The notes: generated by a model not told the origin, from the sequence alone. Counted from the first letter of the stretch, positions 10,012-30,578 are shown. The stretch: 64,000 nucleotides of DNA from Candidatus Moraniibacteriota bacterium (GCA_049297495.1 JBAQUL010000005.1:3868-67867), one strand, 5' to 3'. Made by a program: numbers and translations.

Positions 10012-10030
10012 GGATTCGCCTTATTCATAT

Positions 10031-10209: not shown

Positions 10210-10232
10210 CAGTTTTTATTGACTACTGAAAA

Positions 10233-10514: not shown

Positions 10515-10679
10515 AAACGCAATAAATTAAAATTTCAATCCGCCAGCTGGCGGACAAATGCCAAATAAATTTCAAAGCTCAAAATTCAAAAACTTTGTCA
10601 TTTTAATTTTGGGCTTGATTTGACACCTGCCTGCCGGTAGGCAAGGTTAGAAATTTGGTTTTTGACTTTTTAAAAATCA

Positions 10680-14292: not shown

Positions 14293-17184
14293 TTATGGAA
14301 CGGTCACGATCCCAGTATTGCAAGTTCCGGTCGTGCCATCAGCCGCGTACGCGATCACAAAGCACTGATATTGCCCGCTAGCCCATGGACCGGTACCCAT
14401 ATACCATGAACCAGCACTAACACCTCCATAGTCTGGAGCAAATTGCAGGCCTGCCCAATAAGTCGTATCTACAGCCCAGCATCCACTAAAAACTAACCTA
14501 GCAGCATTTGTGGATACCCAAGTCAGTGCAAAATTTGACGTTGAAGAATATGTTGCAACAGGACTGTTAATTGATGTTCCCCACACTATACTACAAGTAG
14601 GCGCGCTTGAAACACAATTGCTTCCAACCCGAGTATACCCATTGGCACATTTATAGCGACAACTCGTAGTGCTTCCGGTTACATCATAGTCAGTTGTTGC
14701 ATCAGCTACAGGAGACCATGAACCACTCCAGGTTTGAGGATAAGAATCTACCGTATTATACATCGTAGTACTTCCGCCCGGTTTAGCGCTACAAGTAAAA
14801 GTCTGGGTGCTTCCCACACAATTCCAGCCATCCCAAGTATAATTGTTTGCGCATTTATAGCGACAGTCCCCAGATGAAGCCTCATCGCTATGAACAGCGC
14901 TTTTCGTTGATGGCTCCCACGTATCACCATCCCATGTCTGAGTGAATGTTGAGCTAGTATTCCAGACAGTTCCTGTTGCCGGCTTATCGTTGCAAGTTGC
15001 AGATCGAGTATTGGGAACACAAATTCCACCAGAACGAGTATAGTTAAAATCGCACTGAAAGTCACAATTATTGGTTATATTGTAATCTCCGCAGCTACGC
15101 TCAGAACAGTAGTAATTTCCCGTACGAGTACTATGCGCAGGAATGGCCTGAGTACAACCAGGATTAGTCCAATCTGAACACTTGTGATAACAGCAAGCCT
15201 TGCTGGTACCTGTAAAGATAGTCGGGTTTGTAACGCCATACTTCCCGGAGTCATAATCACAAACCAACCGACAACGCTCCGTAACGGTATACCCGGGATC
15301 GCCAGCATTGGCGCATTTCGTATTAGACGCGCAAGTACTGGTATTGACCCAACTCGTTCCGTGATATGGATCTAGGGTATAGTTACAAGCTCCTAGCGTA
15401 ACGGTTGGCGCATTATCATGCGATATAAATGGAGGGCTAACAGAAGGACAATTCTCAGAACAACACTTACCGCTTGGATACTCGGGATCGCCAGCATTAT
15501 TAAATGGATTATAATTCGTCGCACATGTCAAATTACATCGTTTAGTCAGAGTATACGGTCCACAGTTGTTATTATTTGCACAACTCGTATCCGCTGTATT
15601 CCAAGAAGCCTTTTTGAAAGGAGATATTGAACAATATGCGTCTGGATTACTTACGATAGTTGGAGGTGTACCGGACTTATCCGGGCACAACTGCTTGCAA
15701 CATCGGGGTTGCGATGGATCTGACTCGGTTGTGTGGTAAGTGGTAAATGACACTCCATCGTAATAACCATTCCTCGGATTCATATCAACATCTATTTTAT
15801 TTTGTGGCGACCATGAATTAGAATTGAGTTTTATTGATGGATCAGAACCTTCAGCTGCCGCCGGGCAAGTCAAACAATATCCCACCGTTCGATATGGATG
15901 CAAGCAAGCATCTCCAGGCACACAAGCCTGCGCTGTTTTACACCAACCAAGACCAGTAGTGATTCCATTTCCACTAGCTGTTACACCATTGGCGATACCA
16001 ACAGCAACAGTATCGGTAACGCTTGGATAATGACTAGAAGAAGATGTCAAATAGCCCTCTCTGTTAACACATTTTTGAAGCGCGCAATTTTCCTCTGGCA
16101 ATTGCGGCGTCCAATTAGGATCCGGCTGGAAGCATTCTGTCCCATTGCAACAGTTATATGATTGTGTCGCTGTAACAGTTCCCCGTGGCTGGCAACCAGC
16201 TTGCCCGGGACTAGTGCAAAGTTTGACACACTCAAGCCCACCCAAAAGATCTCCGGTGTTACAATCAGAAGTTGACTCAATCGTTATCTCCTTATTTGTT
16301 GTTCCAGCTCCAGTTCCACTCGTATCCAGATAAAGCGAATCAAGGCTCAAGGGATATTTATTTCTTGCTTTGATTGTAAAAAAATAATGCTCATTATATT
16401 GCCCGCCAGAATTGGCCAATGAACCGGGAGTAGAACCAAAAAGTGCTCCACTAAGTTTCTCGTCTCCATTTTTAAGTACCACACTAGAGCTAGGCGTCGT
16501 CACTGGCAACCAAAACGGAACAAACACGCCAGAAGCATTTCTATTTGTTGCTATCCACCAGCCATTACCCGAGACCGTATAATCAGCTTTCAAACTTCCT
16601 TGCATCGACTTTCTCACTTCATAATCTTGAATTTTTTTCGTTACATCAGCGCCACCACCGGGAGTGACAGATAGCTTCACATCACACCTATTCCATGTAC
16701 AAGGAGTAACGCCATCCCCGCAATTTGTCACCGTAAAATCACCACTTCCCAATCCACTATTAATCCGATCGCTCACATCTGCTTGAATTTTACGATTTAA
16801 TCCCTGACTAGCAGCATCGACACCTTGACTCCGAAGCTTATACACTTCTGAAAGATAACCGGAAACTATTTGCGTTGGTGAAGGAGAAGCTGCATTAAAA
16901 CATTTTATAGTATTCCCATCGCAAAAACCCGCTTCATTGTAACGTGCATTTTCCGGAATCCTATTCCCGGCAATATTATTATCCAAAGCTTTCAGATTGT
17001 TCAAAAAAACTTCCGCAGCTGAATCTGAAGCCTGATAGGCGCTATAGCCTTTTTTTGAATCAAGCGTGAGGATTGTTCCTTGAATTGCGCGATTGACAAT
17101 CGCGATTGAAATCGCTGAAATCACCAAAAACATAATCAGGACTCCAATCATAAAACTTCCTCGTTTGTTTTTTTGAATCTTCAT
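14293..17184 (-). CDS. giant Cys-rich extracellular protein with a pseudopilin-like N-terminus lacking Glu5; GspK/PilX-like putative pilus-tip protein
   Basis: 963 aa. N-terminus MKIQKNKRGSFMIGVLIMFLVISAISIAIV is prepilin-like but without F1/E5, as in GspK-type minor pilins. It is the last gene of the pilD/pseudopilin operon. It contains more than 60 Cys, repeated C..RC...C modules, and C..C.. modules shared with the 1364-aa and 733-aa proteins. Confidence 0.55.
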   Translation of the reverse strand: MKIQKNKRGSFMIGVLIMFLVISAISIAIVNRAIQGTILTLDSKKGYSAYQASDSAAEVFLNNLKALDNNIAGNRIPENARYNEAGFCDGNTIKCFNAASPSPTQIVSGYLSEVYKLRSQGVDAASQGLNRKIQADVSDRINSGLGSGDFTVTNCGDGVTPCTWNRCDVKLSVTPGGGADVTKKIQDYEVRKSMQGSLKADYTVSGNGWWIATNRNASGVFVPFWLPVTTPSSSVVLKNGDEKLSGALFGSTPGSLANSGGQYNEHYFFTIKARNKYPLSLDSLYLDTSGTGAGTTNKEITIESTSDCNTGDLLGGLECVKLCTSPGQAGCQPRGTVTATQSYNCCNGTECFQPDPNWTPQLPEENCALQKCVNREGYLTSSSSHYPSVTDTVAVGIANGVTASGNGITTGLGWCKTAQACVPGDACLHPYRTVGYCLTCPAAAEGSDPSIKLNSNSWSPQNKIDVDMNPRNGYYDGVSFTTYHTTESDPSQPRCCKQLCPDKSGTPPTIVSNPDAYCSISPFKKASWNTADTSCANNNNCGPYTLTKRCNLTCATNYNPFNNAGDPEYPSGKCCSENCPSVSPPFISHDNAPTVTLGACNYTLDPYHGTSWVNTSTCASNTKCANAGDPGYTVTERCRLVCDYDSGKYGVTNPTIFTGTSKACCYHKCSDWTNPGCTQAIPAHSTRTGNYYCSERSCGDYNITNNCDFQCDFNYTRSGGICVPNTRSATCNDKPATGTVWNTSSTFTQTWDGDTWEPSTKSAVHSDEASSGDCRYKCANNYTWDGWNCVGSTQTFTCSAKPGGSTTMYNTVDSYPQTWSGSWSPVADATTDYDVTGSTTSCRYKCANGYTRVGSNCVSSAPTCSIVWGTSINSPVATYSSTSNFALTWVSTNAARLVFSGCWAVDTTYWAGLQFAPDYGGVSAGSWYMGTGPWASGQYQCFVIAYAADGTTGTCNTGIVTVP

Positions 17185-17213: not shown

Positions 17214-17786
17214 TTAATTATCATCTCTATATTTCGCTCGCATCGAAACGGTCGTCTGTGCTGTCATCCTCGGAGGGCCAGCTTTCACGAGCACTGTCGT
17301 AATCCTTCCAATAAAGGCTCCTCTCACATAAAAATTTCCCGTGACATCACTCGCAATCACATAATTCGTTGGCGCGCCTACTGTTGGAGTCTCAGCTCTT
17401 GAGAGAGTCTTGGCTACGGAATCAAACGTATATGTCACTGTACTGCCAGTAGCATTATTTTTCAAATCAATAGGATTAGTCAGCCCACTTGGTATTGGCC
17501 CAGGAACAAAATCACTCATACGAATATCTTTTGCCAAAGAATTCAAAGCTAGTGACAATTCTTCATTATTGGCTTGATATCTCTTGATTGATGTACGATT
17601 ATTGAGGTAAGCAATAGTAACAGCCACAATCGCCATGGTCAAAATACTCATAACAGCAATGGCTATGAGTAGTTCAATGAAAGTCAGCCCTTGTCTTCCC
17701 GCAGACCCAGTCGAAGTGTTAGCATTGCAAGTAATAGAATACTTTTTATTTTTATTTAAAATATTTTTCATTTTAGTTTTTTGCAT
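17214..17786 (-). CDS. type IV pilin-like minor pseudopilin
   Basis: Class III signal ...GRQG|LTFIELLIAIAVMSIL. The start ATG overlaps the upstream stop in a TAATG arrangement, suggesting translational coupling. Confidence 0.75.
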   Translation of the reverse strand: MQKTKMKNILNKNKKYSITCNANTSTGSAGRQGLTFIELLIAIAVMSILTMAIVAVTIAYLNNRTSIKRYQANNEELSLALNSLAKDIRMSDFVPGPIPSGLTNPIDLKNNATGSTVTYTFDSVAKTLSRAETPTVGAPTNYVIASDVTGNFYVRGAFIGRITTVLVKAGPPRMTAQTTVSMRAKYRDDN

Positions 17787-18364
17787 TACTCTGTATTCCC
17801 CCATGAATAAATAGTATCAGTCATAGTCAAGGTTTTATTGCTAGTAGTCCCCCATGTTACCGTACTAGTTATTATCCTTGAGTCTGTCGCCGGTGTAGAC
17901 GGACCATTGACAAGAGTAATATTTCTTCTAAATGTTGTCACTGTCGTTCCCGCTCCGCATGCGTTACTATAAAAACCAGTCGTATTATTTCTACACAAAG
18001 TTGTCGCGCCACAAGTAGCTGTTGGAGCAATGCTACTAAAATCAGAGCTATAAAAAACACAAAAACCAGATCCATTACCAGGGAAAGGAGAGTCAAATGC
18101 GCTCTTATTCGCAGGACATGGTACGGTCCCATTGATGCATGTTTTCCAATTATTATCCCGAATATTTCTAACGATTTCAATCCCCTCCTGAGCCAAATTT
18201 GAAGCGATAATAATATCTCGTTTGGAAAATTCCGTACGATATGAAGCCGCCATTACAGTCAAAAAGGTGACAAGCACAATTCCCACAATGAAAGTAGCAA
18301 TCACCGCTTCAATGAGCATATATCCCAACCTGTTTTTTTTATTTTTAAAAACTCGCTTTTGCAT
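17786..18364 (-). CDS. type IV pilin-like minor pseudopilin
   Basis: Probable start at MQKRVFKNKKNRLG|YMLIEAVIATFIVGI, a prepilin cleavage/methylation motif; the longer ORF extension overlaps the upstream gene. A Cys-rich C-terminal domain follows. Confidence 0.7.
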   Translation of the reverse strand: MQKRVFKNKKNRLGYMLIEAVIATFIVGIVLVTFLTVMAASYRTEFSKRDIIIASNLAQEGIEIVRNIRDNNWKTCINGTVPCPANKSAFDSPFPGNGSGFCVFYSSDFSSIAPTATCGATTLCRNNTTGFYSNACGAGTTVTTFRRNITLVNGPSTPATDSRIITSTVTWGTTSNKTLTMTDTIYSWGNTE

Positions 18365-18386
18365 TTTATCTTTTTTGTTCAAAAAA

Positions 18387-18914
18387 CTACTTACATATTG
18401 CTTGATAAGGGGTAACTTCCACATTTCGACTTCCTCCATAGCCGGAGCAAGTGATAATCGAGGTTGCTCCACCACCAGGAAGGGTGCCAACGGCATTGGG
18501 AGTGGCATATGTAGCTGACCATGTCGGAGAAGCACAAGTGACTCCACCAGGAATATGAAACGTTTCACTTAACCCAACAGGATTATTAGAAACTATTTGT
18601 ATGGTACCGCCAGTTATTGTAATCGTGAAAGACTCTGGAACACTGCCGCCAAACCCGCCAGCCACCTTCCCCGACAAGGCATAGTTTCGCGTCTTATTAA
18701 TCATCGCTGACACCTGACCACAAGCATTATTTATGTTTGTCTTATTCTTCATTCCACTGAGCGCACTCCAAGACATCGCAGTGACTATGGTGACAACAGC
18801 GATAATCACAATCAGCTCTAAAATTGTAAATCCCTGATTGCCCGAAACAACCGTATTATAAGTAGACTCGTCTCCAGTTGTCACTTTTTTTTTCGAAAAC
18901 AAATTATCAAACAT
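18387..18914 (-). CDS. type IV pilin-like minor pseudopilin with a long leader
   Basis: ...VVSGNQG|FTILELIVIIAVVTIVTA, the canonical G|FTxxE motif. Confidence 0.75.
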   Translation of the reverse strand: MFDNLFSKKKVTTGDESTYNTVVSGNQGFTILELIVIIAVVTIVTAMSWSALSGMKNKTNINNACGQVSAMINKTRNYALSGKVAGGFGGSVPESFTITITGGTIQIVSNNPVGLSETFHIPGGVTCASPTWSATYATPNAVGTLPGGGATSIITCSGYGGSRNVEVTPYQAICK

Positions 18915-18926: not shown

Positions 18927-19712
18927 CTAAAATAAGTTCAGATACCAGCCCACAATTGGAACATAGTAGAAAAGAGCAAAAAATGTCCCAATAATCAAAA
19001 ATGGAGCAAAAGGAAGTTGACTCTTCATCTCTTTCTTCTTCATTCCAATAAGAATTATACCATAAATAGCACCAATTGCGAAAGCTAGAAAAAGCCCCAG
19101 AAGAATTCTTGGCCAACCCAAAATAAACCCAAGCAGGATAACGAGATAGGCGTCACCCATTCCCATCCATTTTTCCTTTGAGAAATAGGACAAGGAGAAA
19201 AAAAACAAAAATGCACCTCCACCAGCCATAATTCCAGAAACTGCCATTCGTTCCCAGACAGTTGAAAATGTTTGCCCAAAATCAAAATAAACATTGAAAA
19301 TCAAGACCAAAATGATTGCTGGCCAAAGAATCAAATTGGGAATTTCCATGTACAAAATGTCATAGATAAAAATTACCAAAAGAGCGCTAACGAGAGCAAG
19401 CATCACGCCAGTAATCAGCCAGGTCGCAGGATCTTCTAGTCTAAAATATTGATTTGCTAAAAGCGCAAAAACAACGCCCGTGAGCAACTCCACTAAAGGA
19501 TACTGCCAAGAAATTTTTTCTCCACACTCACGACATTTAAATTTCAGAAGGACAAAACTCAAAACCGGGATATTATCATACCAACGAATAGTTTTTTTGC
19601 ATTTTCGACAATGAGAACGCCCCATTATCGTTTCTGCCGTACGAATACGATAAATAACAACATTAAGAAAACTACCAATAATCAGACCGAAAAGAAAAAA
19701 AATGATAAGCAT
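18927..19712 (-). CDS. pilD: prepilin peptidase / N-methyltransferase (A24 family)
   Basis: 261 aa, polytopic membrane protein with CRKC...CREC zinc motifs in the first cytoplasmic loop and the layout of the A24 peptidase family. Confidence 0.85.
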   Translation of the reverse strand: MLIIFFLFGLIIGSFLNVVIYRIRTAETIMGRSHCRKCKKTIRWYDNIPVLSFVLLKFKCRECGEKISWQYPLVELLTGVVFALLANQYFRLEDPATWLITGVMLALVSALLVIFIYDILYMEIPNLILWPAIILVLIFNVYFDFGQTFSTVWERMAVSGIMAGGGAFLFFFSLSYFSKEKWMGMGDAYLVILLGFILGWPRILLGLFLAFAIGAIYGIILIGMKKKEMKSQLPFAPFLIIGTFFALFYYVPIVGWYLNLF

Positions 19713-19773
19713 TATTTTTGGATTAATTTTTTATTCAAACGCCATTAGTACTGCCCGTTTTCAACTAAAAAAC

Positions 19774-19803
19774 TCATTACCTCATCACAAAATCTCATGT
19801 CAA
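19774..19803 (-). promoter_or_regulatory. candidate sigma70-type promoter upstream of pilD
   Basis: Minus-strand TTGACA (19798-19803), an 18-nt spacer, then TAATGA (19774-19779). Confidence 0.25.
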
Positions 19804-19858
19804 GAATAGCATAATTCTTGTGGTAGGGCAAACTCTATTTCTCTATTCTACCATTATA

Positions 19859-20650
19859 TTATTTTTTATTTCTCAAGATAATCACATAACTTTCAGTGAA
19901 GCTGGCATAATACTTGGCATAAATTTCCTGAACAACCGCCCTACCACTAATTTTGAACAATATAAACGAGACTAGCAAAGCAACATTGTCAATCACAAGA
20001 GCCAATAAATTATTCATAACAAATAATGGAAAAAGCCAATATTTCGATCCGGGCAAATAATGCAAGAAATTATTCCAAAGAATTATGAGAGTTTTGAGGT
20101 AACCACTAAGTGGAACAATCCTAATCACCTCGAAACCTTTAAACAATTCTCTGAGACCATATTGAGTGAACCGATAATAATCATGCGGAATCTCATGTTC
20201 AGGAAAAGTCAGTGGCACCGAAATAAAAATCAGTCCTCCATTTTTAACAACCCGCCTAATCTCTCCAATGGTCTCTTGTATTTTTGATGTATGCTCCAAT
20301 ACTTGAGTCGAGATCAAAGCGTCAAATTCACTCTCTCCAAAAGGAAGCTCCCAATTAAACCCAAAAAAATCCGCTTTACTGTCCTGACTAACATCAAAAC
20401 CAACATACGCGTTTACTTTTGGGAATAGAGCTTGGTACGGTTTCGCTCCGCAACCCAGATCAAGAATTTTTCCAACCTTCTCCCGTTCAAGCATCCCAGA
20501 AAAAATCTTCACCTCTCCAAGTAATGCCCGAAGGCTTAAATATGCCCACTGCCATATTCGCGGAGTCGTTCTCTCAGAAATAATTTCCTTAACAGTTTTT
20601 TTCACAACTAAACCTTTGCATATCTCAATATCGATTGTATTATTTTGCAT
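19859..20650 (-). CDS. class I SAM-dependent methyltransferase
   Basis: 263 aa; motif I ILDLGCGAKPY and a methyltransferase-11/12-like fold. Confidence 0.75.
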   Translation of the reverse strand: MQNNTIDIEICKGLVVKKTVKEIISERTTPRIWQWAYLSLRALLGEVKIFSGMLEREKVGKILDLGCGAKPYQALFPKVNAYVGFDVSQDSKADFFGFNWELPFGESEFDALISTQVLEHTSKIQETIGEIRRVVKNGGLIFISVPLTFPEHEIPHDYYRFTQYGLRELFKGFEVIRIVPLSGYLKTLIILWNNFLHYLPGSKYWLFPLFVMNNLLALVIDNVALLVSFILFKISGRAVVQEIYAKYYASFTESYVIILRNKK

Positions 20651-20725
20651 AAAAGCGACAGAGTTGATAGACTAATTATACGTAAGCTAAGTAATGCTTT
20701 CAGTATAGCATAATTTGATCATTCT

Positions 20726-22618
20726 ATGTGCGGAATCACAGGAAAAATCCATCTCAACACAGGCCTTGTTTCAGTTGAAGATATCGAAAAAATGAACTTG
20801 GCTATCGCCCATCGCGGACCAGATGATAGTGGAACATACATCTCCCCTAACCAAAAAATTGGGCTTGGACATCAAAGACTATCCATCATCGATCTCTCCC
20901 ATTTTGGACATCAACCAATGAGTTATATGGATCGCTATTGGATCGTATTCAATGGTGAAATATATAATTTTCAAGCCTTAAAAAAAAATCTACAAAAAGA
21001 AAAAATTTACACCTTCAAATCAAATACTGACACAGAGGTAATCATGGCCCTCTATCACAAATACGGCACCGATTGCCTCCATCATTTACGAGGAATGTTT
21101 TCTTTCGCTATCTATGACGACAAAGAAAAAACCTTATTTTGTGCCAGAGATAGAGTTGGGAAAAAACCCTTTAAATATTACCTTGACGACAACGTTTTTA
21201 TTTTCGCATCAGAGCTCAAGGCAATCCTAACTCAAGCGGAATACAAAAAAGAACCGGATTATGCAGCTATCCGCCACTATTTAACGTTTCAATATTGTCC
21301 AGCGCCACTTACGGGCTTCAAAAATATCAAAAAACTTGAACCAGCCCACTACTTATTAATCGATCTCAAAACAAACCAGACCAAACTTGAACGTTACTGG
21401 AAACTAGATTATTCCGAAAGATTAGACCTATCTGTTAGCGACTGGAAAGAAAAAATTATCAATAAATTGGAGGAATCCGTAAAACTGCGTATGATCGCCG
21501 ATGTTCCTCTAGGGGCTTTCCTTTCCGGAGGAATTGACTCTAGCGCCATCGTTGGAATGATGAGCAAATTCAGTCCCACATCAATCAAAACTTTTTCCAT
21601 TGGATTTTCGGAAAAAAAATATGACGAGCTAGGATACGCGAAAATAGTAGCCCGTAAATTCAAAACTGATCACACCGAGTTTATCGTCAAGCCCGAGGCA
21701 ATGGAAATCCTGCCTGAGCTTGTCCGCCTTTATGAGGAGCCCTTTGCCGATCCCAGCGCCATCCCAACATATTATTTAAGTAAATTGACCCGCGCGCACG
21801 TTACGGTCGCCATGTCAGGAGATGGCGGAGATGAAAACTTCGCCGGATACTTCAGGTACGCCATCCAGAAACTGTCCCTTCAACTTGATTACTTGCGTTT
21901 TTTCAATAAACTCCCTGCCGATATTATTGCCAGGATTCCACTTGAAAATATAAAAAGTGAACTACTGTCCAAGATATTTCTTCTCTTAAGTCACCTGCCG
22001 CTAGATTATCGAAAGCGCTATGCAAGTTACATGTATCGCCAAAACAACCATATTGAAAATAACTTATTCGCCGAAAACTTTCAAAAAATCACATCCAGAG
22101 AAAATAGTCTTGAGTTAATAGTCAATAAATTCAATGAATCGGGAACTGAAAATAAATTAGACCAAACTCTCTATGCCGACTTCTCAACCTATCTACCAGA
22201 TGACCTAATGACAAAAGTGGATCTTGCCAGCATGTCCGTTGCCTTGGAAACACGATCGCCCTTCCTAGATCATGAATTTCTAGAGCTAACCGCCAAAATC
22301 CCGTCCAATTTAAAGGTTAAAAAATTCAATCAAACAAAATGGATTTTGAAAGAAACGCTTGAAGACCTCTTGCCTGACCAAATAATTAACCGGTCCAAAA
22401 AAGGCTTTGAAACACCCCTGAATATTTGGCTGAAAAATCAGCTGAAAGACTATTCCAATGAGCTACTCCTTTCTCAAAAATCCAAAAACAGAAACATACT
22501 TAATAGTGAGACTGTAAAAAAAATACTCGATATCCATCAAAACACTTCTGTCGATTTGTCGCATAAAATCTGGTCGATGATAATTTTAGAAAATTGGTTT
22601 AGGGAATATTTTGACTAA
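20726..22618 (+). CDS. asnB: asparagine synthase (glutamine-hydrolysing)-like amidotransferase
   Basis: 630 aa; N-terminal MCGI (Cys2 nucleophile) and a PP-loop SGGIDSS. Confidence 0.85.
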   Translation: MCGITGKIHLNTGLVSVEDIEKMNLAIAHRGPDDSGTYISPNQKIGLGHQRLSIIDLSHFGHQPMSYMDRYWIVFNGEIYNFQALKKNLQKEKIYTFKSNTDTEVIMALYHKYGTDCLHHLRGMFSFAIYDDKEKTLFCARDRVGKKPFKYYLDDNVFIFASELKAILTQAEYKKEPDYAAIRHYLTFQYCPAPLTGFKNIKKLEPAHYLLIDLKTNQTKLERYWKLDYSERLDLSVSDWKEKIINKLEESVKLRMIADVPLGAFLSGGIDSSAIVGMMSKFSPTSIKTFSIGFSEKKYDELGYAKIVARKFKTDHTEFIVKPEAMEILPELVRLYEEPFADPSAIPTYYLSKLTRAHVTVAMSGDGGDENFAGYFRYAIQKLSLQLDYLRFFNKLPADIIARIPLENIKSELLSKIFLLLSHLPLDYRKRYASYMYRQNNHIENNLFAENFQKITSRENSLELIVNKFNESGTENKLDQTLYADFSTYLPDDLMTKVDLASMSVALETRSPFLDHEFLELTAKIPSNLKVKKFNQTKWILKETLEDLLPDQIINRSKKGFETPLNIWLKNQLKDYSNELLLSQKSKNRNILNSETVKKILDIHQNTSVDLSHKIWSMIILENWFREYFD

Positions 22619-23762
22619 CAATATTATGAAAATACTTGTTTTCACCGCAATGTATCCCCCCTGCATTGGAGGACTGAGCAGTCATGCCGATGAATTCAAT
22701 AGACACTTGGCTAGTGAAGATACAAAAATCACTGTTTTTACCTGCCTACTCATCAAGGACTCGGCCGAATATGAAAAAATTAATGAGCATCTGGACATCA
22801 TCAGATTCCCAGCCTTTGAAATTGTTCCCAACTATCCCCTGCCCAAATTTTGGAAGTTTAAATTTTGGAAACTATATCTTAGCTTATTCAAAACAGACTA
22901 CGATCTCATCATCTCACGTATTAGATTTTTCAACACGTCTCTTTTGGCCATGCTGCTCGCCAAAATCAAAAGAACTAGATGGATCCACATCGAGCACACT
23001 TCCAACTTCACCATCCTATCAAGCCCACTAAAATCATTCGTCGCAAAAATCTATGACCTAACGATCGGTAGACTCATTTTCCGATCGTCAGATATGAATA
23101 TTTCCATCTCGAGAGCAGTTCAGAAGTTTGTCTATAAATTTGACAAAAGACATTCTCCAATCATTTACCGCGGGCTAAATTTGGACGCAATAGATTCCAT
23201 CCCTCCTGATATTGATTTCAAAAACAGATTCAAAGATAAGATAATCATTCTGACCGTAGCCAGACTCTATAAATGGAAAGGGATTGAATACAGCATAGAA
23301 GCAATCAAAAGCCTTCCGGAGAATATAAAAAAACAAATAATTTTTATTGTCATTGGTGATGGAGAAGATTTTTCCAGACTGCAAAAGTTATCCGACAAAT
23401 CAACCATCCTGCTCGGAAGCATGCCGAGAGAAAAAGCGATTGGGATAATAAAGGTATCAGACATCTATATCCATTCCGCCCTGCACGGTGGCGGACTTTC
23501 CACATCTCTTTTGGAAGCAATGTATTGCAACTGTGCAATCATTGCTACGCCAAATGAGGGAGCAGATGAAGTTATCAATTTGAGAGAAGACACTCTCATG
23601 GAAATTCCTCACATCCAAAAAATAAGCGCCACCATAACAAACATCATTTCCAATCAAGAAAAAAGAATCTCCACGGGGAAAGAAATGAGAAACAAGATAA
23701 TAGAAAATTTTAGTTGGGAAAAATCGATAAAATTGTATCAGAGAATACTAAAAAGAAACTAA
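22611..23762 (+). CDS. glycosyltransferase family 4 (GT-B)
   Basis: 383 aa; C-terminal GT4 signature ...HGGGLSTSLLEAMYCNCAIIATPNEGADEVI. Overlaps asnB by 8 bp, suggesting an operon. Confidence 0.75.
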   Translation: MTNNIMKILVFTAMYPPCIGGLSSHADEFNRHLASEDTKITVFTCLLIKDSAEYEKINEHLDIIRFPAFEIVPNYPLPKFWKFKFWKLYLSLFKTDYDLIISRIRFFNTSLLAMLLAKIKRTRWIHIEHTSNFTILSSPLKSFVAKIYDLTIGRLIFRSSDMNISISRAVQKFVYKFDKRHSPIIYRGLNLDAIDSIPPDIDFKNRFKDKIIILTVARLYKWKGIEYSIEAIKSLPENIKKQIIFIVIGDGEDFSRLQKLSDKSTILLGSMPREKAIGIIKVSDIYIHSALHGGGLSTSLLEAMYCNCAIIATPNEGADEVINLREDTLMEIPHIQKISATITNIISNQEKRISTGKEMRNKIIENFSWEKSIKLYQRILKRN

Positions 23763-23776
23763 AACACGCTCATTGA

Positions 23777-24343
23777 TCATTTTTTAACTACTCTAAAATG
23801 AAACTCTATTTCCTCAAATCCCCCTACCCAGTAACACCATATTCTTGAACACAAAAGAGGAGCTAGATTAGCAAAAAAATCTAAAATTTTCCCAGTTGAC
23901 ATGGCCATGAAATAAACAAGTGGAGATACGAGGGTTTTTTTCAAATAAGGCTGACACATCCAAGCAAGAGTTATCTTTTCTGGAACAAATTCAAATCCTT
24001 GATAACCTCCCTGAAAAGATGGGTTAAAATAATGGCAAAAGGCTAAGTCAAATCCTCTTTTGTGTTCTGGATGAGTAAATCCTCTTGAAAAATGAGGGAC
24101 TTTTAATTTTACCATCCCCCCATTTTCAACTATACGATGCAACTCCTTCATAACTCCAAATGGATTATTCAAATGCTCCAAAACATGATCCGCCTCAACC
24201 AAGATAAATTCATTGTCTACAAAGGGATATGGGAACATCTCCAGGTTATGTCGAATATCAGGCTCTGAAACTGAAAAATAATCCACATTAACAAATCCTT
24301 TCTTTTTGAATTCTCCGCATCCTAAATTTAGTTTTCTTATCAT
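23777..24343 (-). CDS. SAM-dependent methyltransferase
   Basis: 188 aa; LNLGCGEFKKKGFVNVD motif I. Confidence 0.7.
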   Translation of the reverse strand: MIRKLNLGCGEFKKKGFVNVDYFSVSEPDIRHNLEMFPYPFVDNEFILVEADHVLEHLNNPFGVMKELHRIVENGGMVKLKVPHFSRGFTHPEHKRGFDLAFCHYFNPSFQGGYQGFEFVPEKITLAWMCQPYLKKTLVSPLVYFMAMSTGKILDFFANLAPLLCSRIWCYWVGGFEEIEFHFRVVKK

Positions 24344-24372
24344 AGTAATATCGCCAGTTAAGTTATTTTATA

Positions 24373-25293
24373 TCACTCAATCCTCCTTTTTCTATTAATT
24401 ATAACCAGTAGCTCTTCATGCCTCCTTTTAATTGAGCTCAAAATCAATCCAGCAATAAAACTGATAAAAGCAGCGATCATTGAAAGGCCGGCAACAATTA
24501 ACGTTGGGATGCGCAAAACAATTCCCGTGTGTATATAATCTCGAATGCTATACCATCCAAGAAACATGCCCATCAGAAAAAAGATGGAACTCAAGAGTGT
24601 AAAAAATTGCAACGGCTTATAGTCACGAAATAAGGAGATGATTGTATAGAGAACAACTGTACCATCCCTTACTGCATTAAGCTTTGAAAGACTTCCTTTT
24701 TTTCTCAGATAAAGCGCTATTGGAACTTCCTCTATTCGTACGCCTCGCTCCAAAGCTTGGATAGTTAACTCCGGCTCAATCCCAAAGCCACCGGCCAAGA
24801 GAGCACTTGAATGAACAAACTTCTTATCAATTGCTCGAAAACCCGATTCCATATCTTGAAGCTTTGTCCCAAACAAGAAATTTAGTGATTTGGTGAGAAA
24901 TTTATTTCCCAACCAATGACTACCGGTAAAAATACTCTCATTCTTTGAGTGTATCCGATTTCCTACTACCATATCGGCATTATCCTCTAATACTGAAACT
25001 AACAAATTATGCACGTCTTTAGCTTCATAAGTGTCATCACCATCGACTAAAATAAGCACATCTCCATCAAATTCATCAAATATTTTTTGGACAGCGAACC
25101 CTTTGCCTTGCCTTTTTTCGCTAGTCACATCTGCCCCGGCTTTTCGGGCAATTTCTGCTGTCTGATCTTTTGAATTATTGTCCACAACCAAAATTCGCGC
25201 TTCCGGCAGCTCTCTTTTAAAATCTGTGATTACCTTGCCAATTGTCAATTCTTCGTTATAACAAGGAATTGCTACTACAATTTTATTATTCAT
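24373..25293 (-). CDS. GT2 polyprenyl-phosphate glycosyltransferase (DPM1/ArnC/GtrB-like)
   Basis: 306 aa; VVAIPCYNEE...LILVDGDD (DxD), a GT-A domain plus two C-terminal TM helices. Confidence 0.8.
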   Translation of the reverse strand: MNNKIVVAIPCYNEELTIGKVITDFKRELPEARILVVDNNSKDQTAEIARKAGADVTSEKRQGKGFAVQKIFDEFDGDVLILVDGDDTYEAKDVHNLLVSVLEDNADMVVGNRIHSKNESIFTGSHWLGNKFLTKSLNFLFGTKLQDMESGFRAIDKKFVHSSALLAGGFGIEPELTIQALERGVRIEEVPIALYLRKKGSLSKLNAVRDGTVVLYTIISLFRDYKPLQFFTLLSSIFFLMGMFLGWYSIRDYIHTGIVLRIPTLIVAGLSMIAAFISFIAGLILSSIKRRHEELLVIINRKRRIE

Positions 25294-26997
25294 TTATTTA
25301 AGTTTAAATACATCAACTTTTACATTCTCATTCTGCGCCTTGGCCTCATAATGATCTTCAATCAAATCAGGGTTTAATGCGATTATCTTGCTAAAGGCAT
25401 CAACGTCAGAAACAATAAATCGAGAACCGAATTCAGTCTTAACTGAATCAACCATCTTTCTTCCATTTTCCTTAGCATATTCTTTGCCAGCATCCTCCCC
25501 CTGTGTAGCCAATCTATCGCTAGTTGCTTTTACCAAATCCTCGCAATCCCGCGCTTCATCACAATAAAAATTATACCTATACATATTATACCAACGCCAA
25601 TACAGCTTCTGATCATATTGTTTCAGCGCAGTTGGATCCATCCCCATCGTATAAACATTCTTACTATCACCAAAAAATAATCGAGGAAAACTACCCCAAT
25701 CATGAATAAAAACTAATTCTTTTTCATTCGAATTGGACTCCAGCCACCTAGCAGCTTCAATATAGCTGGCATAGCGAATGTTACCAATTATTTTTTTTAG
25801 CTCAATAAAATTATTCAATGAAACCAGTGCAACAAATGCCACCAAGCCCACAGCCAGATACCTATACAGACCACTATTGAAAACGATTAGTCGCTCCTTT
25901 TGGAATATACTCACGATAACTGCCAACAAAAAAATTAGGGTGAACTGATAATAATCGTAAAATCGTCCAGAAACGACCATCGTTCCCAAGCTAAGAAGCA
26001 ACAGAAATATGAAAGAAGAATACGCTATGATATAGAATTCTGCCAATTCACAATCTTGACCCATACAAATCAAAGAATTTGGTTCCTTTTTTTGTCTTAT
26101 ATAGAAAAAGATTATTGTTGCAACACAAATAAGCGCGATAACAAAAAATACATCAACACCGATAAAACGTCCGCTAAAAGCATCTAGCGCCGACAGTTCC
26201 ATTCCGGACACCTTCGATGTTCTGTCTATCACGCTTGTCTGCGCAACAAAAATATTCCCAAGCCAAGTCCAAAGATTAGGAAAGTTAGGCAAAAAGACCA
26301 TCCCTGAAGCAGTCGCAAAAAAAACTGCAAAAAAATTATAATAAAAAAACTTCTGCAAAACCAGATATCGCGCCATCTCAACAATCCCTACTATCACAAG
26401 TGGAAGCCAAAATGTCGCATTATGCCAAAATAAATGCACCAATGTAAGCAAAAATAATTTTCGATACTCTTTCTTGACCGCTAAAAGCATTTCCAAAAAA
26501 ACCAGACCTATTGTTAAAATAAATGGCCGACCCATCAATAAACGATGGATCAAAAAAGGAGAAGTAAGTATGAAAAAAGTGAAAAATAGGGGATACTTTA
26601 TACTTGCCTTTTTTAAGGCATAATAAAAAAGCGCCAAAAGACTGGATGCGAAAAATATATCACTTAATTTTAATCCGGTTATGCTATCCTTGAAGAAAGT
26701 AAAAGGAGCGGTAGCGATATTAAACAAGGATAGTCCAAATTTGCTTTGCCCAGCTTCTGTTTTTAGCAGAAAACCCCCTGTGAAATTTTTCACTTCATCC
26801 CAACCACCTTTTCTTAAAATTTCAGCATACTTAAAATAATAAAAATGGTCATCAATAGTTGAAACTCCCGAGTTATCCAAATACGCCCACGAATAAAGCA
26901 GTGCTACAACCAAAAAAACACCTACGGAAATAAGTGCCGGATAATTTGAATATAAGAATCTAACTTTATTTAAAAATAGCCGTAAGCAAAGAAGCAT
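25294..26997 (-). CDS. GT-C family polytopic membrane glycosyltransferase (ArnT/PMT/TfpW-like)
   Basis: 567 aa, more than 10 TM helices, and a DD/DE motif in the first extracytoplasmic loop (TIDDHFYY). It abuts the DPM1-like GT2 (1-bp gap) and lies about 200 bp from the major pilin genes. Confidence 0.65.
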   Translation of the reverse strand: MLLCLRLFLNKVRFLYSNYPALISVGVFLVVALLYSWAYLDNSGVSTIDDHFYYFKYAEILRKGGWDEVKNFTGGFLLKTEAGQSKFGLSLFNIATAPFTFFKDSITGLKLSDIFFASSLLALFYYALKKASIKYPLFFTFFILTSPFLIHRLLMGRPFILTIGLVFLEMLLAVKKEYRKLFLLTLVHLFWHNATFWLPLVIVGIVEMARYLVLQKFFYYNFFAVFFATASGMVFLPNFPNLWTWLGNIFVAQTSVIDRTSKVSGMELSALDAFSGRFIGVDVFFVIALICVATIIFFYIRQKKEPNSLICMGQDCELAEFYIIAYSSFIFLLLLSLGTMVVSGRFYDYYQFTLIFLLAVIVSIFQKERLIVFNSGLYRYLAVGLVAFVALVSLNNFIELKKIIGNIRYASYIEAARWLESNSNEKELVFIHDWGSFPRLFFGDSKNVYTMGMDPTALKQYDQKLYWRWYNMYRYNFYCDEARDCEDLVKATSDRLATQGEDAGKEYAKENGRKMVDSVKTEFGSRFIVSDVDAFSKIIALNPDLIEDHYEAKAQNENVKVDVFKLK

Positions 26998-27113
26998 ATA
27001 AAGATTATCCAGAATAAATTAAACCGATAAAGATGGGCACTGCGAAATAAACTTTAAAAAAAATATCAAACAGCCATTTTCGAATAATCGCAAAAAACAC
27101 CTTTTTTTGTCGA

Positions 27114-27157
27114 CCCGCTCCGCAATAAATTTAAACAATCTGTCTATGCGGAGCGGG
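27114..27157 (-). terminator. GC-rich hairpin downstream of pilA1; possible terminator
   Basis: CCCGCTCCGCA...(22-nt loop)...TGCGGAGCGGG, an 11-bp stem; the U-tract is not immediately adjacent. Confidence 0.3.
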
Positions 27158-27199
27158 AAATCCATTAGCGTCTATCGACAAAAACATTCTCAAAATACT

Positions 27200-27634
27200 T
27201 TAGAGCCCTGTTTCAACATAGGTACATCCGGCTTCAGAACATGCAGCAGCCACCGTTCCAGTTCCAACATTACAAGTTAGATTGAGAAAAAATATACCAT
27301 CAGAATTGCTTGTAGTAGCATTAAAGGTTATTGGATTGATAAATGAACACGTTTTTGGAACTAGGTTCGGAAGCATGGAAACAGTTCCTGGGCAAACATT
27401 AGTTGTAGTTGTTCCAAAGCCAGCATTAGTTGGAGCAGCAAGGGTGGAACCCATATCTTCACACATCGCAAACGCCGGCACCAAGCTGGAAATACCAGCC
27501 TTAAACGATGCCGATTTTGCCTTCGCTCTCGCCGCATTCAAACTAACCAACACGATCGATGCCAAAATTCCAATGATCGCAATCACGATCAAAAGTTCAA
27601 TCAGCGTAAAACCTTTTAATTTTTTATTTTTCAT
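27200..27634 (-). CDS. pilA: type IVa major pilin (paralog 1)
   Basis: Start MKNKKLKG|[21 protein letters not shown], a canonical prepilin; 145 aa with C-terminal Cys pairs. Conserved 5' leader with RBS (AACTAGAAAGGTGGGTGAAATTATG). Confidence 0.85.
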   Translation of the reverse strand: MKNKKLKGFTLIELLIVIAIIGILASIVLVSLNAARAKAKSASFKAGISSLVPAFAMCEDMGSTLAAPTNAGFGTTTTNVCPGTVSMLPNLVPKTCSFINPITFNATTSNSDGIFFLNLTCNVGTGTVAAACSEAGCTYVETGL

Positions 27635-27786
27635 AATTTCACCCACCTTTCTAGTTTGCCTCTAAGTCACCAATAAGTAGATGACTAAAAGCATTATTTT
27701 TCCCACTAAATTCCGCTCTAGTCGGGTACCAGCTTCGCTGGACTTAGTAAGATTATTTCCTATGTAAAATCAAATCTTAATTCTTT

Positions 27787-28158
27787 CTATGGGCAGAGAT
27801 CAAAATTAACTCCGGCACTTGTAATAACTGCTCCTGTGCAAGTCGCAGGCAAACTAGCAGGATCAACTGGAGTCACATCAATATCATCAAAACTTCCCGA
27901 TCCATTGCACATATTGTCTGTTGAAGCTGGCGAACTCACAGATGGTGGAACCGCTGTAATGAGCATTGTGTTACCATCGTCAGAACTACATTCACTAGCA
28001 TAAGCAGATTTCAAGCTTGCAACTCCGGATTTGAAATCAGCTTGCCTGGCTTTCGCTCTCGCACTATTTAAACTAACCAAGACGATTGACGCCAAAATTC
28101 CAATAATCGCGATTACAATCAAAAGTTCAATCAAGGTAAAGCCTTTTTTATTTTTCAT
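27787..28158 (-). CDS. pilA: type IVa major pilin (paralog 2)
   Basis: MKNKKG|[31 protein letters not shown]...; the same N-terminal 45 aa and 5' leader as paralog 1 (AACTAGAAAGGCGGGTGAATTATG), with a divergent C-terminal domain. Confidence 0.85.
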
Positions 28159-28192
28159 AATTCACCCGCCTTTCTAGTTTTAAAAATCTTTT

Positions 28193-29416
28193 CTATTTTA
28201 TCTGTCCTGCAATATTATATATCGGCATAAGAACTCCCACGGCCATAAAACCGACACCGAGTCCAATCATAATCATTAAAATTGGTTCAATCAGCGTTGA
28301 CATATTTTTTGCCATCAATTCCACTTCTTGACTATAAAACTTAGTGATATGCCCAAGTACCGCGTCGACTTGACCAGAATCCTCACCAATTTTGATCATA
28401 TGCGAAACCATTGGGGGGAAAAGTGGACTTCTGCGCAAAATGTCACTCATCGTCTCTCCTCTTTTCACATTTTCCGCAGTACGCAAAAGCAACTCTTCAT
28501 AGGCCGAATTTCCAATCACCGCACTAACAATCGTAAGCGCTTTTATAATTGGAATACCACCTGCCAAAAGCACAGCTAAATTTTCAGAAAACCTTGTGAT
28601 ATAAACATACCGAAATAACGTCCCGATTACTGGCAACTTTAATTTAATCTGATCCCATTCTTTTTTCCCCTCTGGCGTGTTGAGATAGTAAGCAATACCA
28701 GCGATAGCGCCAAAAATAAGCACCAGCACTGCCCACCAATATTGCACCATGAAATCCCCGGTTTTGATGAGTACATTCGTATACCAAGGAACTTCTGCTT
28801 CCAACTCCTTAATCATTATAGTTAGCTTCGGGATAATCAGCGTAATTACCAAAAAACCGATAATGAAAAACACGACCATAATTATTGCAGGGTAAAGCAT
28901 GGCCGATTTCACCTTGTTACTCAGATTATAGTTTTTTTCGATATTATCCGCCACATATTCGACAGACTTTCTCAAATTTCCCGAGGCTTCGCCGGCTTTG
29001 ATGATATTGATGACCAAATTAGAAAAGACTTCTTTATGTTTAGCAAGCGCATCAGACAGTGGAACACCATCCTCGATGTCCTTCATTGCTTCAGCCAGAA
29101 TGATTTTCAAAAAACTGCTCGTCGTTTGCTCTCCGATAGCTGCGAGAGCCACCACAATCGGCACCCTTGCTTCAATCAAAATTGCCAGCTGTCGAAAAAA
29201 GATTACCAACTCCTTGCTCGTGACTTTGTCAAAATATTGAGCGACTACTTTTTTGACTGAACTCCCCACCTCTTCCTCAAGACTGATTGGAAAAAGCTCA
29301 TTTTTTTGCAAAATAGCCGCAGCCACATCACGACTAGCTGCGCTGATGTAGCCAGTATTAACTTCTCCTGTTTTTGTTTTAGCTTTAAATTTAAATTTCA
29401 TATTTTTCACCCTCAA
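28193..29416 (-). CDS. pilC: type IV pilus inner-membrane platform protein (GspF family)
   Basis: 407 aa with two GspF repeats and three TM segments. Confidence 0.85.
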   Translation of the reverse strand: MRVKNMKFKFKAKTKTGEVNTGYISAASRDVAAAILQKNELFPISLEEEVGSSVKKVVAQYFDKVTSKELVIFFRQLAILIEARVPIVVALAAIGEQTTSSFLKIILAEAMKDIEDGVPLSDALAKHKEVFSNLVINIIKAGEASGNLRKSVEYVADNIEKNYNLSNKVKSAMLYPAIIMVVFFIIGFLVITLIIPKLTIMIKELEAEVPWYTNVLIKTGDFMVQYWWAVLVLIFGAIAGIAYYLNTPEGKKEWDQIKLKLPVIGTLFRYVYITRFSENLAVLLAGGIPIIKALTIVSAVIGNSAYEELLLRTAENVKRGETMSDILRRSPLFPPMVSHMIKIGEDSGQVDAVLGHITKFYSQEVELMAKNMSTLIEPILMIMIGLGVGFMAVGVLMPIYNIAGQIK

Positions 29417-29507: not shown

Positions 29508-30578
29508 CTAGTATCTGAGCAGTGTTTCGAAATTTTTTGTGTCCCTTGCATAGGCCGAAGCGACTTCAAGAGAAACCAAACCTCTTCTGACTAAATCGGC
29601 CAGTGAGCGATCCATTGTCACCATCCCCTCTTGAGAACTCGTTTCAATCACATTACCAATCTGATAACTTTTGTTTTCTCGGATCAAGTTTTCCACCGCA
29701 TGATTTTTAATCATGATTTCAACCGCCGGAGACCGACCCTCGTCAACCCTGGGGATCAAACGCTGAGACACGACTGCCAAAAGCACGCTGGCCAATTGGG
29801 CTCGGACTTGATTTTGCTGATGCGCAGGAAAAACATCCACGATACGATCAATTGTTTGCGGGGCATCATTGGTGTGAAGTGTCCCAAAAATCAAATGCCC
29901 GGTTTCAGCCGCTGTCATTGCCGCGGAAATCGTGTCCAAGTCTCGCAGCTCACCAATAAGCACTACGTTCGCATCCTCGCGAAAAAGTCCCTTTAGCGCC
30001 AGCTGAAAAGAATTCGTGTCTTGATAGACTTCTCTTTGATTGATAATTGAGCGATCCTGCTCATAGACATATTCAATTGGGTCTTCAATAGTCAAGATAT
30101 GCTTTTCTTGGTTATGATTAATATCATCAATCATAGCGGCTAGTGTTGTCGATTTTCCATGCCCCACCGGTCCTACCATTAAAAATAATCCTTGCGAAAC
30201 TTTGGTGAAATCATAAAGAATTTCCGGCACACCCAATTCCTCCAACGTACGAATACCTTTGGAAATTAGACGAAATGCCATACTTGTATAGCCCTGTTGA
30301 AAAAAAGCATTAACGCGAAAACGCACCTTGTCCTCAAAATTATAGGAGAGGTCGACTTGCCCTTCTTTTTCTAATTGCTTTTTCTTCTCTTCATTCAAAA
30401 CAACATCGCAAATCTCACGTGTAACTTCAGGTGTAATTATTTCATCTTGATTGAGCGAGATGAGTTTTCCGTCAATTCGATAGGTCGGATAGCGACCAAC
30501 CACCAAATGCAAGTCTGATGCTCCGCGTTGCGCGGCGATTCTTAATAAATTTTTTATTTTTTGTTCAGTTCTTAACAT
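29508..30578 (-). CDS. pilT: twitching-motility retraction ATPase
   Basis: 356 aa; Walker A GPVGHGKSTT, Asp box, His box, and PilT length. Confidence 0.85.
   Translation of the reverse strand: MLRTEQKIKNLLRIAAQRGASDLHLVVGRYPTYRIDGKLISLNQDEIITPEVTREICDVVLNEEKKKQLEKEGQVDLSYNFEDKVRFRVNAFFQQGYTSMAFRLISKGIRTLEELGVPEILYDFTKVSQGLFLMVGPVGHGKSTTLAAMIDDINHNQEKHILTIEDPIEYVYEQDRSIINQREVYQDTNSFQLALKGLFREDANVVLIGELRDLDTISAAMTAAETGHLIFGTLHTNDAPQTIDRIVDVFPAHQQNQVRAQLASVLLAVVSQRLIPRVDEGRSPAVEIMIKNHAVENLIRENKSYQIGNVIETSSQEGMVTMDRSLADLVRRGLVSLEVASAYARDTKNFETLLRY

Follow-up and report, generated by a model that had tools for sequence, protein, structure and literature searches.

Does the pilus gene cluster of a Candidatus Moraniibacteriota bacterium carry enzymes that glycosylate its own pilins? 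We asked this of a 64,000-nt window of DNA (GCA_049297495.1 JBAQUL010000005.1:3868-67867), which is the whole stretch that was analysed and to which coordinates refer unless a relative is named. An earlier note on this DNA had proposed that six genes at 19859-26997 form a glycosylation island between the minor-pilin operon and the tandem major pilins, and that a glycosyltransferase of the GT-C class encoded next to pilA decorates the pilin. Open reading frame (ORF) calls and Pfam and NCBIfam scans, from which we drew up the gene inventory, placed the six island genes, the tandem pilins, PilD and the minor pilins where the note had them. We consider it likely that the island encodes a dedicated pilin glycosylation system, which operates in the manner of the pilin-modifying enzyme TfpW and is built on a new GT-C family. 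Gene order, gene fusion and protein fold are what point to the pilins as the modified proteins.

Transcription on the minus strand runs from PilM to PilB and then through a REC-only regulator, PilT, PilC, pilA1, pilA2, a 567-aa GT-C protein, a family 2 glycosyltransferase (GT2) and a short methyltransferase. The GT-C gene (25294-26997, minus strand), which we assign by structure and which encodes about 12-13 transmembrane (TM) helices, has its start codon 202 bp downstream of the pilA2 stop codon, where the earlier note had put it about 200 bp from pilA. Its own stop codon abuts the start codon of the GT2 gene (24373-25293, minus strand) with no intergenic bases. The short methyltransferase gene (23777-24343, minus strand) is the last of this pilA-GT-C-GT2 operon. 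Convergent with it on the plus strand are genes for an AsnB-like amidotransferase and then a family 4 glycosyltransferase (GT4), after which the minus strand resumes with a 263-aa methyltransferase, PilD and the minor pilins. A scan of 19600-28400 for promoters and terminators gave counts equal to the shuffled expectation and was uninformative. The window, a Patescibacteria fragment, has a low GC content of about 0.40; we rejected horizontal acquisition of the island because its GC content (0.37-0.40) equals that of the window.

The 567-aa protein gave no usable sequence match in Pfam, NCBIfam or the PDB, either as a single sequence or as a profile of 104 sequences, so that its identification as a GT-C enzyme could be tested only by structure. 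The sole profile-search match in the PDB was a designed repeat protein, which we discarded as spurious. We built an AlphaFold (AF2) model on 104 diverse family members and obtained a confident structure (pLDDT 93.4, pTM 0.93). When this model was compared with the PDB using Foldseek, all 20 of the best matches were GT-C enzymes (STT3/PglB, DPY19, ALG9/12, AftA, ArnT), and the fold thus bears out the label given in the earlier note. The longest structural alignments were to peptide-modifying enzymes, with DPY19 at 470 residues, STT3B at 465, PglB at 445 and AglB at 428 at 3.5 A, and the match to PMT covered the membrane core only, about 340 residues. The C-terminal extracytoplasmic alpha/beta domain of 160 aa found its best structural match in the C-terminal domain of AglB. 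No O-antigen ligase, polymerase or SEDS protein was present among the top structural matches. As modelled, the 567-aa protein is a bona fide GT-C enzyme of the structural class that holds oligosaccharyltransferases (OST), PMT and ArnT.

Clustering with cell-wall or lipid glycosyltransferases, and an island without a pilin link in related genomes, had been named beforehand as outcomes that would speak against pilin modification. What we found is that the GT-C protein is structurally nearest to protein-modifying GT-Cs (AglB/STT3/PglB and DPY19, and PMT over the membrane core) and that the GT-C/GT2 pair is pilin-linked in about 45 species.

Among the conserved residues of the protein is an acidic motif, D49/D50, which lies in the first extracytoplasmic loop, following TM1, and there immediately precedes the first loop helix. 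D50 is invariant in alignments of 8, 22 and 81 sequences and at least 90 % conserved in the 104-sequence alignment; D49 is invariant in the 8-sequence alignment and at least 90 % conserved in that of 22. R152, G265/E267, R345 and W434 are conserved in at least 90 % of family members (81-104 diverse sequences). Within the C-terminal domain, C479 and C485 are invariant in the 22 closest relatives.

We found no match to STT3 (PF02516) for the query or 81 family members beyond one faint AglB_core-like match (E 0.095), and the family profile retrieved no OST from the PDB at E <= 10. Pfam scans of the query and the same 81 members gave no PMT/PMT_2, MIR, Wzy_C/O-antigen-ligase or arabinosyltransferase match, and a Pfam scan of the 567-aa protein gave no TPR. 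The WWDYG motif is absent, with IHDWGSFP in the window protein and WDxFP as the family consensus. Judged by these sequence features, the 567-aa GT-C belongs to no named family. The earlier note had likened the system to TfpW, TfpO and PglL alike; the likeness to TfpW held up, and that to TfpO and PglL did not, as the Wzy_C/O-antigen-ligase domain is absent.

The family itself is large and lies outside the curated libraries Pfam and NCBIfam. The closest relative, 95 % identical, is encoded in a metagenome-assembled genome of a Candidatus Moraniibacteriota. A word-indexed search returned 8 relatives, and an exhaustive profile search returned 3034 cluster representatives at E <= 1e-3, 1149 of them at E <= 1e-30.

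The partner of the GT-C, a 306-aa GT2 protein (Glycos_transf_2, E 6e-24), had been described in the earlier note as a DPM1-like enzyme that makes a polyprenyl-phosphate sugar, and its matches agree with this. The top NCBIfam match is AglJ (TIGR04182, 224 bits, E 2e-66, under the equivalog cut-off of 325), followed by a haloarchaeal Dol-P-hexose transferase, PpgS and ArnC; in the PDB the GT2 matches by sequence only Dol-P-Man synthase (5mlz, E 1.6e-9) and ArnC. Like enzymes of the Dol-P-mannose synthase/ArnC type, it ends in two C-terminal TM helices. The same ranking, with AglJ first, was obtained for all eight GT2 partners tested from other pilus-linked loci, including the N-terminal domain of one fusion. 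This suggests that the GT2 is a synthase of the polyprenyl-phosphate sugar type and the predicted maker of a lipid-phosphate-sugar donor. Its adjacency and fusion to the GT-C indicate, indirectly, that the GT-C may use a polyprenyl-phosphate-linked sugar.

If the pair serves the pilus, its genes should keep their place beside the pilins in other genomes. On contigs of relatives, GT-C genes whose products are 95, 54, 35 and 25 % identical to the window protein adjoin pilin or PilD genes; a relative at 22 % identity is not beside such genes. We then scanned one genome per GTDB species with a peptide motif taken from the loop-1 region of 22 closer sequences and recovered 44 loci, nearly all labelled Patescibacteria, which we annotated by comparison with the proteins of the window and by a regular expression for prepilins. 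The typical order was PilM..PilB-RR-PilT-PilC-PilA(x1-4)-[GT2]-GT-C-[GT2]-(pilin)-PilD-minor pilins, and orthologues of the window's PilC-to-PilM machinery were found in unchanged order in nearly all related loci. Of the 52 GT-C genes of this clade, which stem from about 45 species, 48 have a pilin, PilC or PilD gene no more than 3 kb away, and their usual place is directly past pilA. For 33 of the 52 a pilin gene is found at 300 bp or less, and for 38 PilC at 3 kb or less. The GT2 gene lies within 300 bp of the GT-C gene in 26 of the 52 and is fused with it into a single chain in 10, an arrangement that makes topological sense because the N-terminus of the GT-C is cytoplasmic. The pilin-linked pair was traced down to 23-28 % identity.

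As a control we scanned metagenomes with motifs of a divergent sister subfamily, which gave 80 loci in 1.03 Mb. No pilin-like ORF, PilC or PilD was found in these loci, and a GT2 gene was often adjacent. In a neighbour-joining tree all 48 pilus-linked genes fell inside one clade of 52 and all 75 control genes fell outside it, so that pilus adjacency stands at 48/52 in the clade vs 0/75 in the sister subfamily (Fisher p about 1e-30). The placement of the GT-C next to pilus genes is far from chance. When 156 representatives were scored, 64 were pilus-type, 53 belonged to the other subfamily and 39 were ambiguous; four cluster representatives are GT2-GT-C fusions, one of which scores as pilus-type.

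Several further features of the loci were seen. Members of the sister subfamily (L009 10001-21560; L054-L133) occur amid arrays of two or three GT2 genes and a DUF2079 protein, together with several unannotated 553-aa proteins that may be paralogues, and one representative (P0154) has a C-terminal GDPD phosphodiesterase domain. Some Moraniibacteriota relatives carry two pilus-linked GT-C copies, in tandem in L013 (8179-11644) and L015 (9965-13449) and about 1.1 kb apart in L014 (7019-11578); L015 also has four major pilin paralogues.

The control bears directly on whether the GT-C/GT2 pair decorates the envelope and not the pilus. A cell-wall polymer, an S-layer protein or a membrane lipid could be its target, in the manner of Gtr, ArnC/ArnT or CsbB/YfhO, and its place in the pilus cluster would then be merely co-regulation or inherited synteny. 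The sister subfamily, with no pilus link, speaks for such a role, as does AftA among the structural matches. We nevertheless regard envelope modification as unlikely. The place directly past pilA is kept down to 23-28 % identity despite changes in local order (GT2 before or after the GT-C, fusions, tandem GT-C genes), all pilus-linked GT-C genes fall in one clade, and the best-covered structural matches are peptide-modifying GT-Cs.

The two major pilins next to the GT-C are the candidate acceptors. pilA1 (27787-28158, minus strand; 123 aa; N_methyl PF07963, E 4e-11; TIGR02532) has the class III signal peptide KKG|FTLIELL, one Ser/Thr-rich patch and one sequon (NGS). pilA2 (27200-27646, minus strand), the second of the tandem pair, is an ORF opening with GTG at 27646; its probable start is the ATG at 27634, which gives 144 aa as in the relative L001. 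It carries two Thr-rich patches, GFGTTTTN and FNATTSNS, and two sequons (NAT, NLT). Ser/Thr-rich patches, which the earlier note had proposed to look for, are present in both window pilins, alongside sequons, but such richness is generic for pilins.

The major pilins beside the GT-C average 2.8 sequons, and 46 of the 47 carry one or more. We counted 131 N-x-S/T in the 47 major pilins vs 108 in the shuffled expectation (z 2.7) and 89 for the reversed pattern, an excess seen only at the +2 spacing, and found no N-x-S/T excess in minor pilins. When the 47 pilins were grouped at 40 % identity into 10 clusters, 5 were up and 3 down and the excess was not significant. We therefore dropped sequon enrichment as evidence of N-glycosylation. 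The O-glycosylation put forward in the earlier note is likewise not established, as the type of linkage is not decidable from sequence.

We next considered the genes around the GT-C/GT2 core. The short class-I S-adenosylmethionine (SAM) methyltransferase is a weak call (188 aa; Methyltransf_11, 24.4 bits against a cut-off of 21.2 bits). Methyltransferases turn up again in 16 loci; in 7 the domain is joined to the pilus-linked GT2, and in about 9 more it stands beside the GT-C. This supports placing the 188-aa protein of the window in the pathway, where it probably modifies the sugar. Conservation of the neighbourhood beside pilA, which the earlier note had proposed to check, was thus found for the GT-C, the GT2 and often a methyltransferase; the other three genes fared differently. 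Among the relatives' loci examined, the AsnB-like and GT4 genes occur only in the 95 % relative (L001/L002), and so does the 263-aa methyltransferase, weak relatives of which adjoin the GT-C in L031 and L045.

The AsnB-type glutamine amidotransferase (20726-22618, plus strand; 630 aa; Asn_synthase, E 3e-101) scores 499 bits with TIGR01536, above the cut-off, and 590 bits with TIGR03108, the exopolysaccharide (EPS)-type amidotransferase, below the cut-off. The GT4 gene (22611-23762, plus strand; Glycos_transf_1, E 7.5e-28), which probably starts at the ATG at 22626 to give 378 aa, directly follows it. The two resemble the amidotransferase/GT4 pairs of exopolysaccharide loci (TIGR03108, TIGR03088), and this favours a glycan role for both. 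From these matches the AsnB-like enzyme possibly amidates a uronic acid of the glycan; it could also be a plain asparagine synthetase. The remaining island gene encodes the 263-aa SAM methyltransferase upstream of pilD (19859-20650, minus strand; Methyltransf_11 and Methyltransf_23, E about 1e-10).

The content of this region differs between relatives. In the 54 % relative the order is GT-C-GT2-PilD with nothing between, and other Moraniibacteriota-type relatives have cassettes of another make-up in the same position, with GT4s and further GT2s, with methyltransferases, an epimerase/dehydratase and a pyruvyl transferase, and with a flippase of the Wzx-like (Polysacc_synt) kind. We saw no initiating phosphoglycosyltransferase among the genes that were scanned. 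The conserved core is the GT-C and GT2, with the methyltransferase in part of the loci, and the stretch between this core and pilD is a hypervariable glycan cassette. In the 95 % relative the 263-aa methyltransferase and PilD are separated by an insert of two MNT/HepT toxin-antitoxin pairs and one AAA/DUF4143 gene (L001 17222-20482; L002 9846-13106); as this insert is absent from the window, the site before PilD is an insertion hot spot.

Such cassettes also bear on a second alternative, in which the pilus-linked GT-C clade would be a very divergent relative of AglB/STT3 and Patescibacteria would have an archaeal-style N-glycosylation pathway reserved for their pili. The AglJ-like GT2 would start an oligosaccharide on polyprenyl monophosphate, the glycosyltransferases, methyltransferases and amidotransferase would finish it, a Wzx/AglR-like protein would flip it, and the GT-C would transfer it en bloc to the Asn of N-x-S/T in pilins. 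AglJ is the top match of every pilus-linked GT2 tested, the C-terminal domain of the GT-C best matches that of AglB, and sequons are present in nearly all major pilins. The relatives' cassettes, with GT4s, GT2s, methyltransferases and a Wzx-like flippase and with no initiating phosphoglycosyltransferase among the genes scanned, parallel the Haloferax Agl pathway (PMC3871713).

Enzymes of the STT3/AglB/PglB type (GT66) have about 13 TM helices, an alpha/beta domain at the C-terminus and a catalytic D (EL1), E (EL5) and R; the window protein resembles them in architecture and in its C-terminal domain. With hhalign the GT-C family matched PglB sequences moderately well over 235 columns (Prob 72 %, E 3.5e-5). 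The alignment paired R152, E267 and R345 with PglB columns that we take to be R147, E319 of the TIxE loop and R375 in C. lari PglB numbering, and the pairing of E267 and R345 would suit an AglB-like enzyme. Slices from the N- and C-terminal ends aligned with PglB were not significant (Prob 0.2 % and 26 %). The C-terminus of the window protein (window 25294-25320) reads ...VDVFKLK and that of C. jejuni PglB ...AKVFKLKI, a resemblance that is not significant (hhalign Prob 26 %), and the relative P0007 has DAKIFEV at the position of PglB's DAKVFKL, again in an alignment that is not significant.

We consider an AglB-like oligosaccharyltransferase quite unlikely. Besides the modest hhalign score and the insignificant end slices, Pfam yields no match to STT3, the WWDYG motif is missing (HDWGSF in the window protein, WDxFP in the family), the sequon excess is lost over the 10 pilin clusters, and most loci have the GT2 and GT-C alone, which fits the transfer of a single sugar. 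If true, this reading would bear on a shared ancestry of type IV filament glycosylation in archaea and Patescibacteria.

We rate it as very improbable that the GT-C is a Wzy/EpsG-type polymerase and the locus a Wzx/Wzy surface-polysaccharide locus that came to lie in the pilus cluster by chance. In favour of this are weak matches to EpsG (PF14897), given by 9 of 81 family members (best E 8.5e-9), and the Wzx-like flippases and several glycosyltransferases beside the GT-C in relatives. Against it, most pilus-linked members have neither Wzx nor extra glycosyltransferases but only a GT2, sometimes fused, and no initiating phosphoglycosyltransferase or chain-length regulator was seen among the genes scanned. 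The structural matches are without exception glycosyltransferases that have an acidic motif in loop 1 and an extracytoplasmic domain at the C-terminus.

A number of observations weigh against a dedicated pilin glycosylation system. The sister subfamily shows that the fold and its GT2 chemistry are not intrinsically pilin-specific. The two sets of loci were retrieved with different peptide motifs, so that the split between the clades is partly built into the sampling, while the neighbourhoods were not selected for. Four of the 52 clade members have no visible pilus link; two of these (L012, L047) lie at contig ends and two (L046, L052) are genuinely unlinked. We found no conserved acceptor motif in the pilins, their Ser/Thr richness is of the generic kind, and it is the gene neighbourhood only that singles out the pilin as putative acceptor. 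The island contains no flippase gene, of the small GtrA, SMR or MATE type or otherwise, and 19859-26997 has no free ORF of at least 80 aa besides the six genes. Among the window proteins scanned, the only one of transporter type that could conceivably flip a lipid-linked sugar is an EamA/DMT-family transporter at 4277-5185 (minus strand), 15 kb from the island. ArnE and ArnF belong to the EamA/DMT transporter superfamily.

With these points weighed, a dedicated pilin glycosylation system remains the reading we favour, and it could work in two or three steps, as follows. At the cytoplasmic face the GT2 would load a sugar from a nucleotide sugar onto polyprenyl phosphate, as its homology suggests, and the small methyltransferase, given its recurrent adjacency and fusion, would probably methylate that sugar. 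In this strain the GT4, the AsnB-like amidotransferase and the second methyltransferase may, on weaker grounds, extend or modify the lipid-linked glycan. Some flippase would then turn the lipid-linked sugar outward. There the GT-C, with its DD motif, R152, E267 and R345, would transfer the sugar to the globular domain of the pilin, the acceptor that gene order indicates. Transfer would precede assembly by PilB and PilC, at a stage when the N-terminal helix still holds the pilins in the membrane. Within one clade of the GT-C family, which is Patescibacteria-wide, the GT-C/GT2 core would be an ancestral component of the type IV pilus cluster and the remaining genes a hypervariable cassette that diversifies the glycan, with a glycan-coated pilus as the expected outcome. 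One may speculate that such a glycan has a role in surface variation, phage evasion or host recognition.

The rest of the pilus cluster flanks the island on both sides. At its far edge lies the PilD prepilin peptidase (18927-19712, minus strand; A24_N_bact, E 1e-33; Peptidase_A24, E 3e-14), followed on the same strand by three minor pilins with N_methyl or GspH-type N-termini (18387-18914, about 17786-18365, and 17214-17804). Upstream of the major pilins, also on the minus strand, are PilC (28193-29416), PilT (29508-30578), the REC-only regulator (30585-30974), PilB (31004-32677), two small genes and PilM (34073-35209). The position of the REC-only response regulator between PilB and PilT is kept in nearly all of the 44 Patescibacteria pilus loci.

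Directly past the minor pilins, a 963-aa Cys-rich protein without a Pfam match (14293-17184, minus strand) has a PilX-like N-terminal TM segment, repeated C-x3-C...Y modules (CRYKCANNYTW, CDFQCDFNYTR, CRLVCDYDSGKY) and 10 N-x-S/T sequons; it is probably a pilus tip adhesin. Farther on, NAD-dependent DNA ligase and GatA/GatC (8557-12992, minus strand) follow the minor-pilin operon, as they do in L004 and L006 (54 % and 35 % GT-C identity), so that synteny reaches beyond the pilus cluster. Upstream of PilM, a 1364-aa protein without a Pfam match (35834-39928, minus strand), present also in the 95 % relative L001, occupies the sole GC-rich stretch of the window (0.475 vs about 0.40). Over the whole window the GC skew is uniformly and strongly negative (-0.1 to -0.3), and the minus strand holds nearly all genes.

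Patescibacteria, also known as the candidate phyla radiation (CPR), are ultra-small bacteria with reduced genomes that live mostly as episymbionts. Of their surface machines, type IV pili rank with the best conserved, and in cultured Saccharibacteria these pili drive host binding. The one discussion of CPR pilin glycosylation that we found predicts it from sequence motifs and calls for a search for the enzymes, naming none (PMC11623550). In a literature search within open-access papers and preprints we found no paper describing a glycosyltransferase in CPR pilus clusters. Candidate enzymes can now be named: a GT-C family absent from Pfam and NCBIfam, an AglJ-like GT2 and a recurring methyltransferase, located in the pilus cluster of dozens of species. 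What would be new is pilA-linked glycosylation by a new GT-C family that is conserved throughout a radiation and whose members are coupled or fused to the synthase that makes their donor. If this is true, organisms that discarded most of their biosynthesis would have retained pilus glycosylation as an ancestral trait. The variable cassette could then account for surface differences between strains, which may affect phage evasion and host specificity, and the enzyme would be the founding member of a new CAZy GT-C family whose acceptor is a protein.

We finally compared the locus with known systems. In the actinobacterial Ppm1/PMT system (GT39), PMT acts on many Sec substrates and is not pilus-linked; the window GT-C differs from it in having no PMT/PMT_2 match or MIR domain and in matching its structure over the membrane core only. 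PglL and TfpO (PilO) are of the Wzy_C/O-antigen-ligase type and use Und-PP-linked oligosaccharides from lipopolysaccharide (LPS) or general glycosylation pathways. With these the locus shares a glycosylated pilin as the outcome, and the TfpO gene also adjoins pilA, but the window GT-C is of another protein family and lacks their Wzy_C/O-antigen-ligase domain.

The archaeal Agl system of N-glycosylation comprises AglJ, further glycosyltransferases, the AglP methyltransferase, the AglR flippase and the AglB oligosaccharyltransferase (PMC3871713), and AglB also modifies archaeal type IV pilins and archaellins (PMC5131992). The likeness lies in an AglJ-like first enzyme, in methyltransferases and, in relatives, a Wzx/AglR-like flippase within the same cassette, in a GT-C whose overall architecture and C-terminal domain are AglB/STT3-like, and in type IV pilins as the presumed substrates. 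The differences are that there is no STT3 match and no WWDYG, that the GT2 reaches 224 vs 325 bits, and that here a GT2 and GT-C mostly stand alone, which suggests a single sugar.

Three-component systems such as GtrA/GtrB/Gtr*, ArnC/ArnEF/ArnT, CsbB/GtcA/YfhO and GT136 of Citrobacter modify O-antigen, lipid A or teichoic acids (PMC11127046). They too combine a GT2-type polyprenyl-phosphate sugar synthase with a GT-C that acts outside the membrane, and the founder of GT136, like the family described here, showed no sequence similarity to established GT-C families. In contrast to these systems, the conserved neighbour here is a pilin, the island has no GtrA/SMR/MATE flippase, and the GT2 and GT-C can form single-chain fusions.

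TfpW of Pseudomonas aeruginosa group IV strains (Pa5196/PA7), a GT-C encoded directly downstream of pilA, O-arabinosylates the pilin (bioRxiv 10.1101/2020.04.19.049825). Compared by this published description, it is the closest functional analogue. In both systems a polytopic GT-C gene lies immediately past a major pilin gene (here past pilA2, and in the same place in related loci), an acidic DD(x) motif is present in periplasmic loop 1, and the donor is a sugar linked to a lipid monophosphate and made by separate cytoplasmic enzymes, as predicted for the window, with an uncertain flippase in each. The proteins differ in build, as TfpW has 11 TM helices and a C-terminal TPR and the window GT-C has about 12-13 TM helices and an AglB-like alpha/beta domain. 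The donor pathways differ as well: TfpW draws on a DPPR synthase and DprE1/E2 for D-Araf, none of which was found among the island genes and the ten flanking window proteins scanned, whereas here the donor would come from an AglJ/DPM1-type GT2, often fused, together with a methyltransferase. Lastly, only a subset of strains has TfpW, whereas conservation of the window module extends over much of a bacterial radiation.

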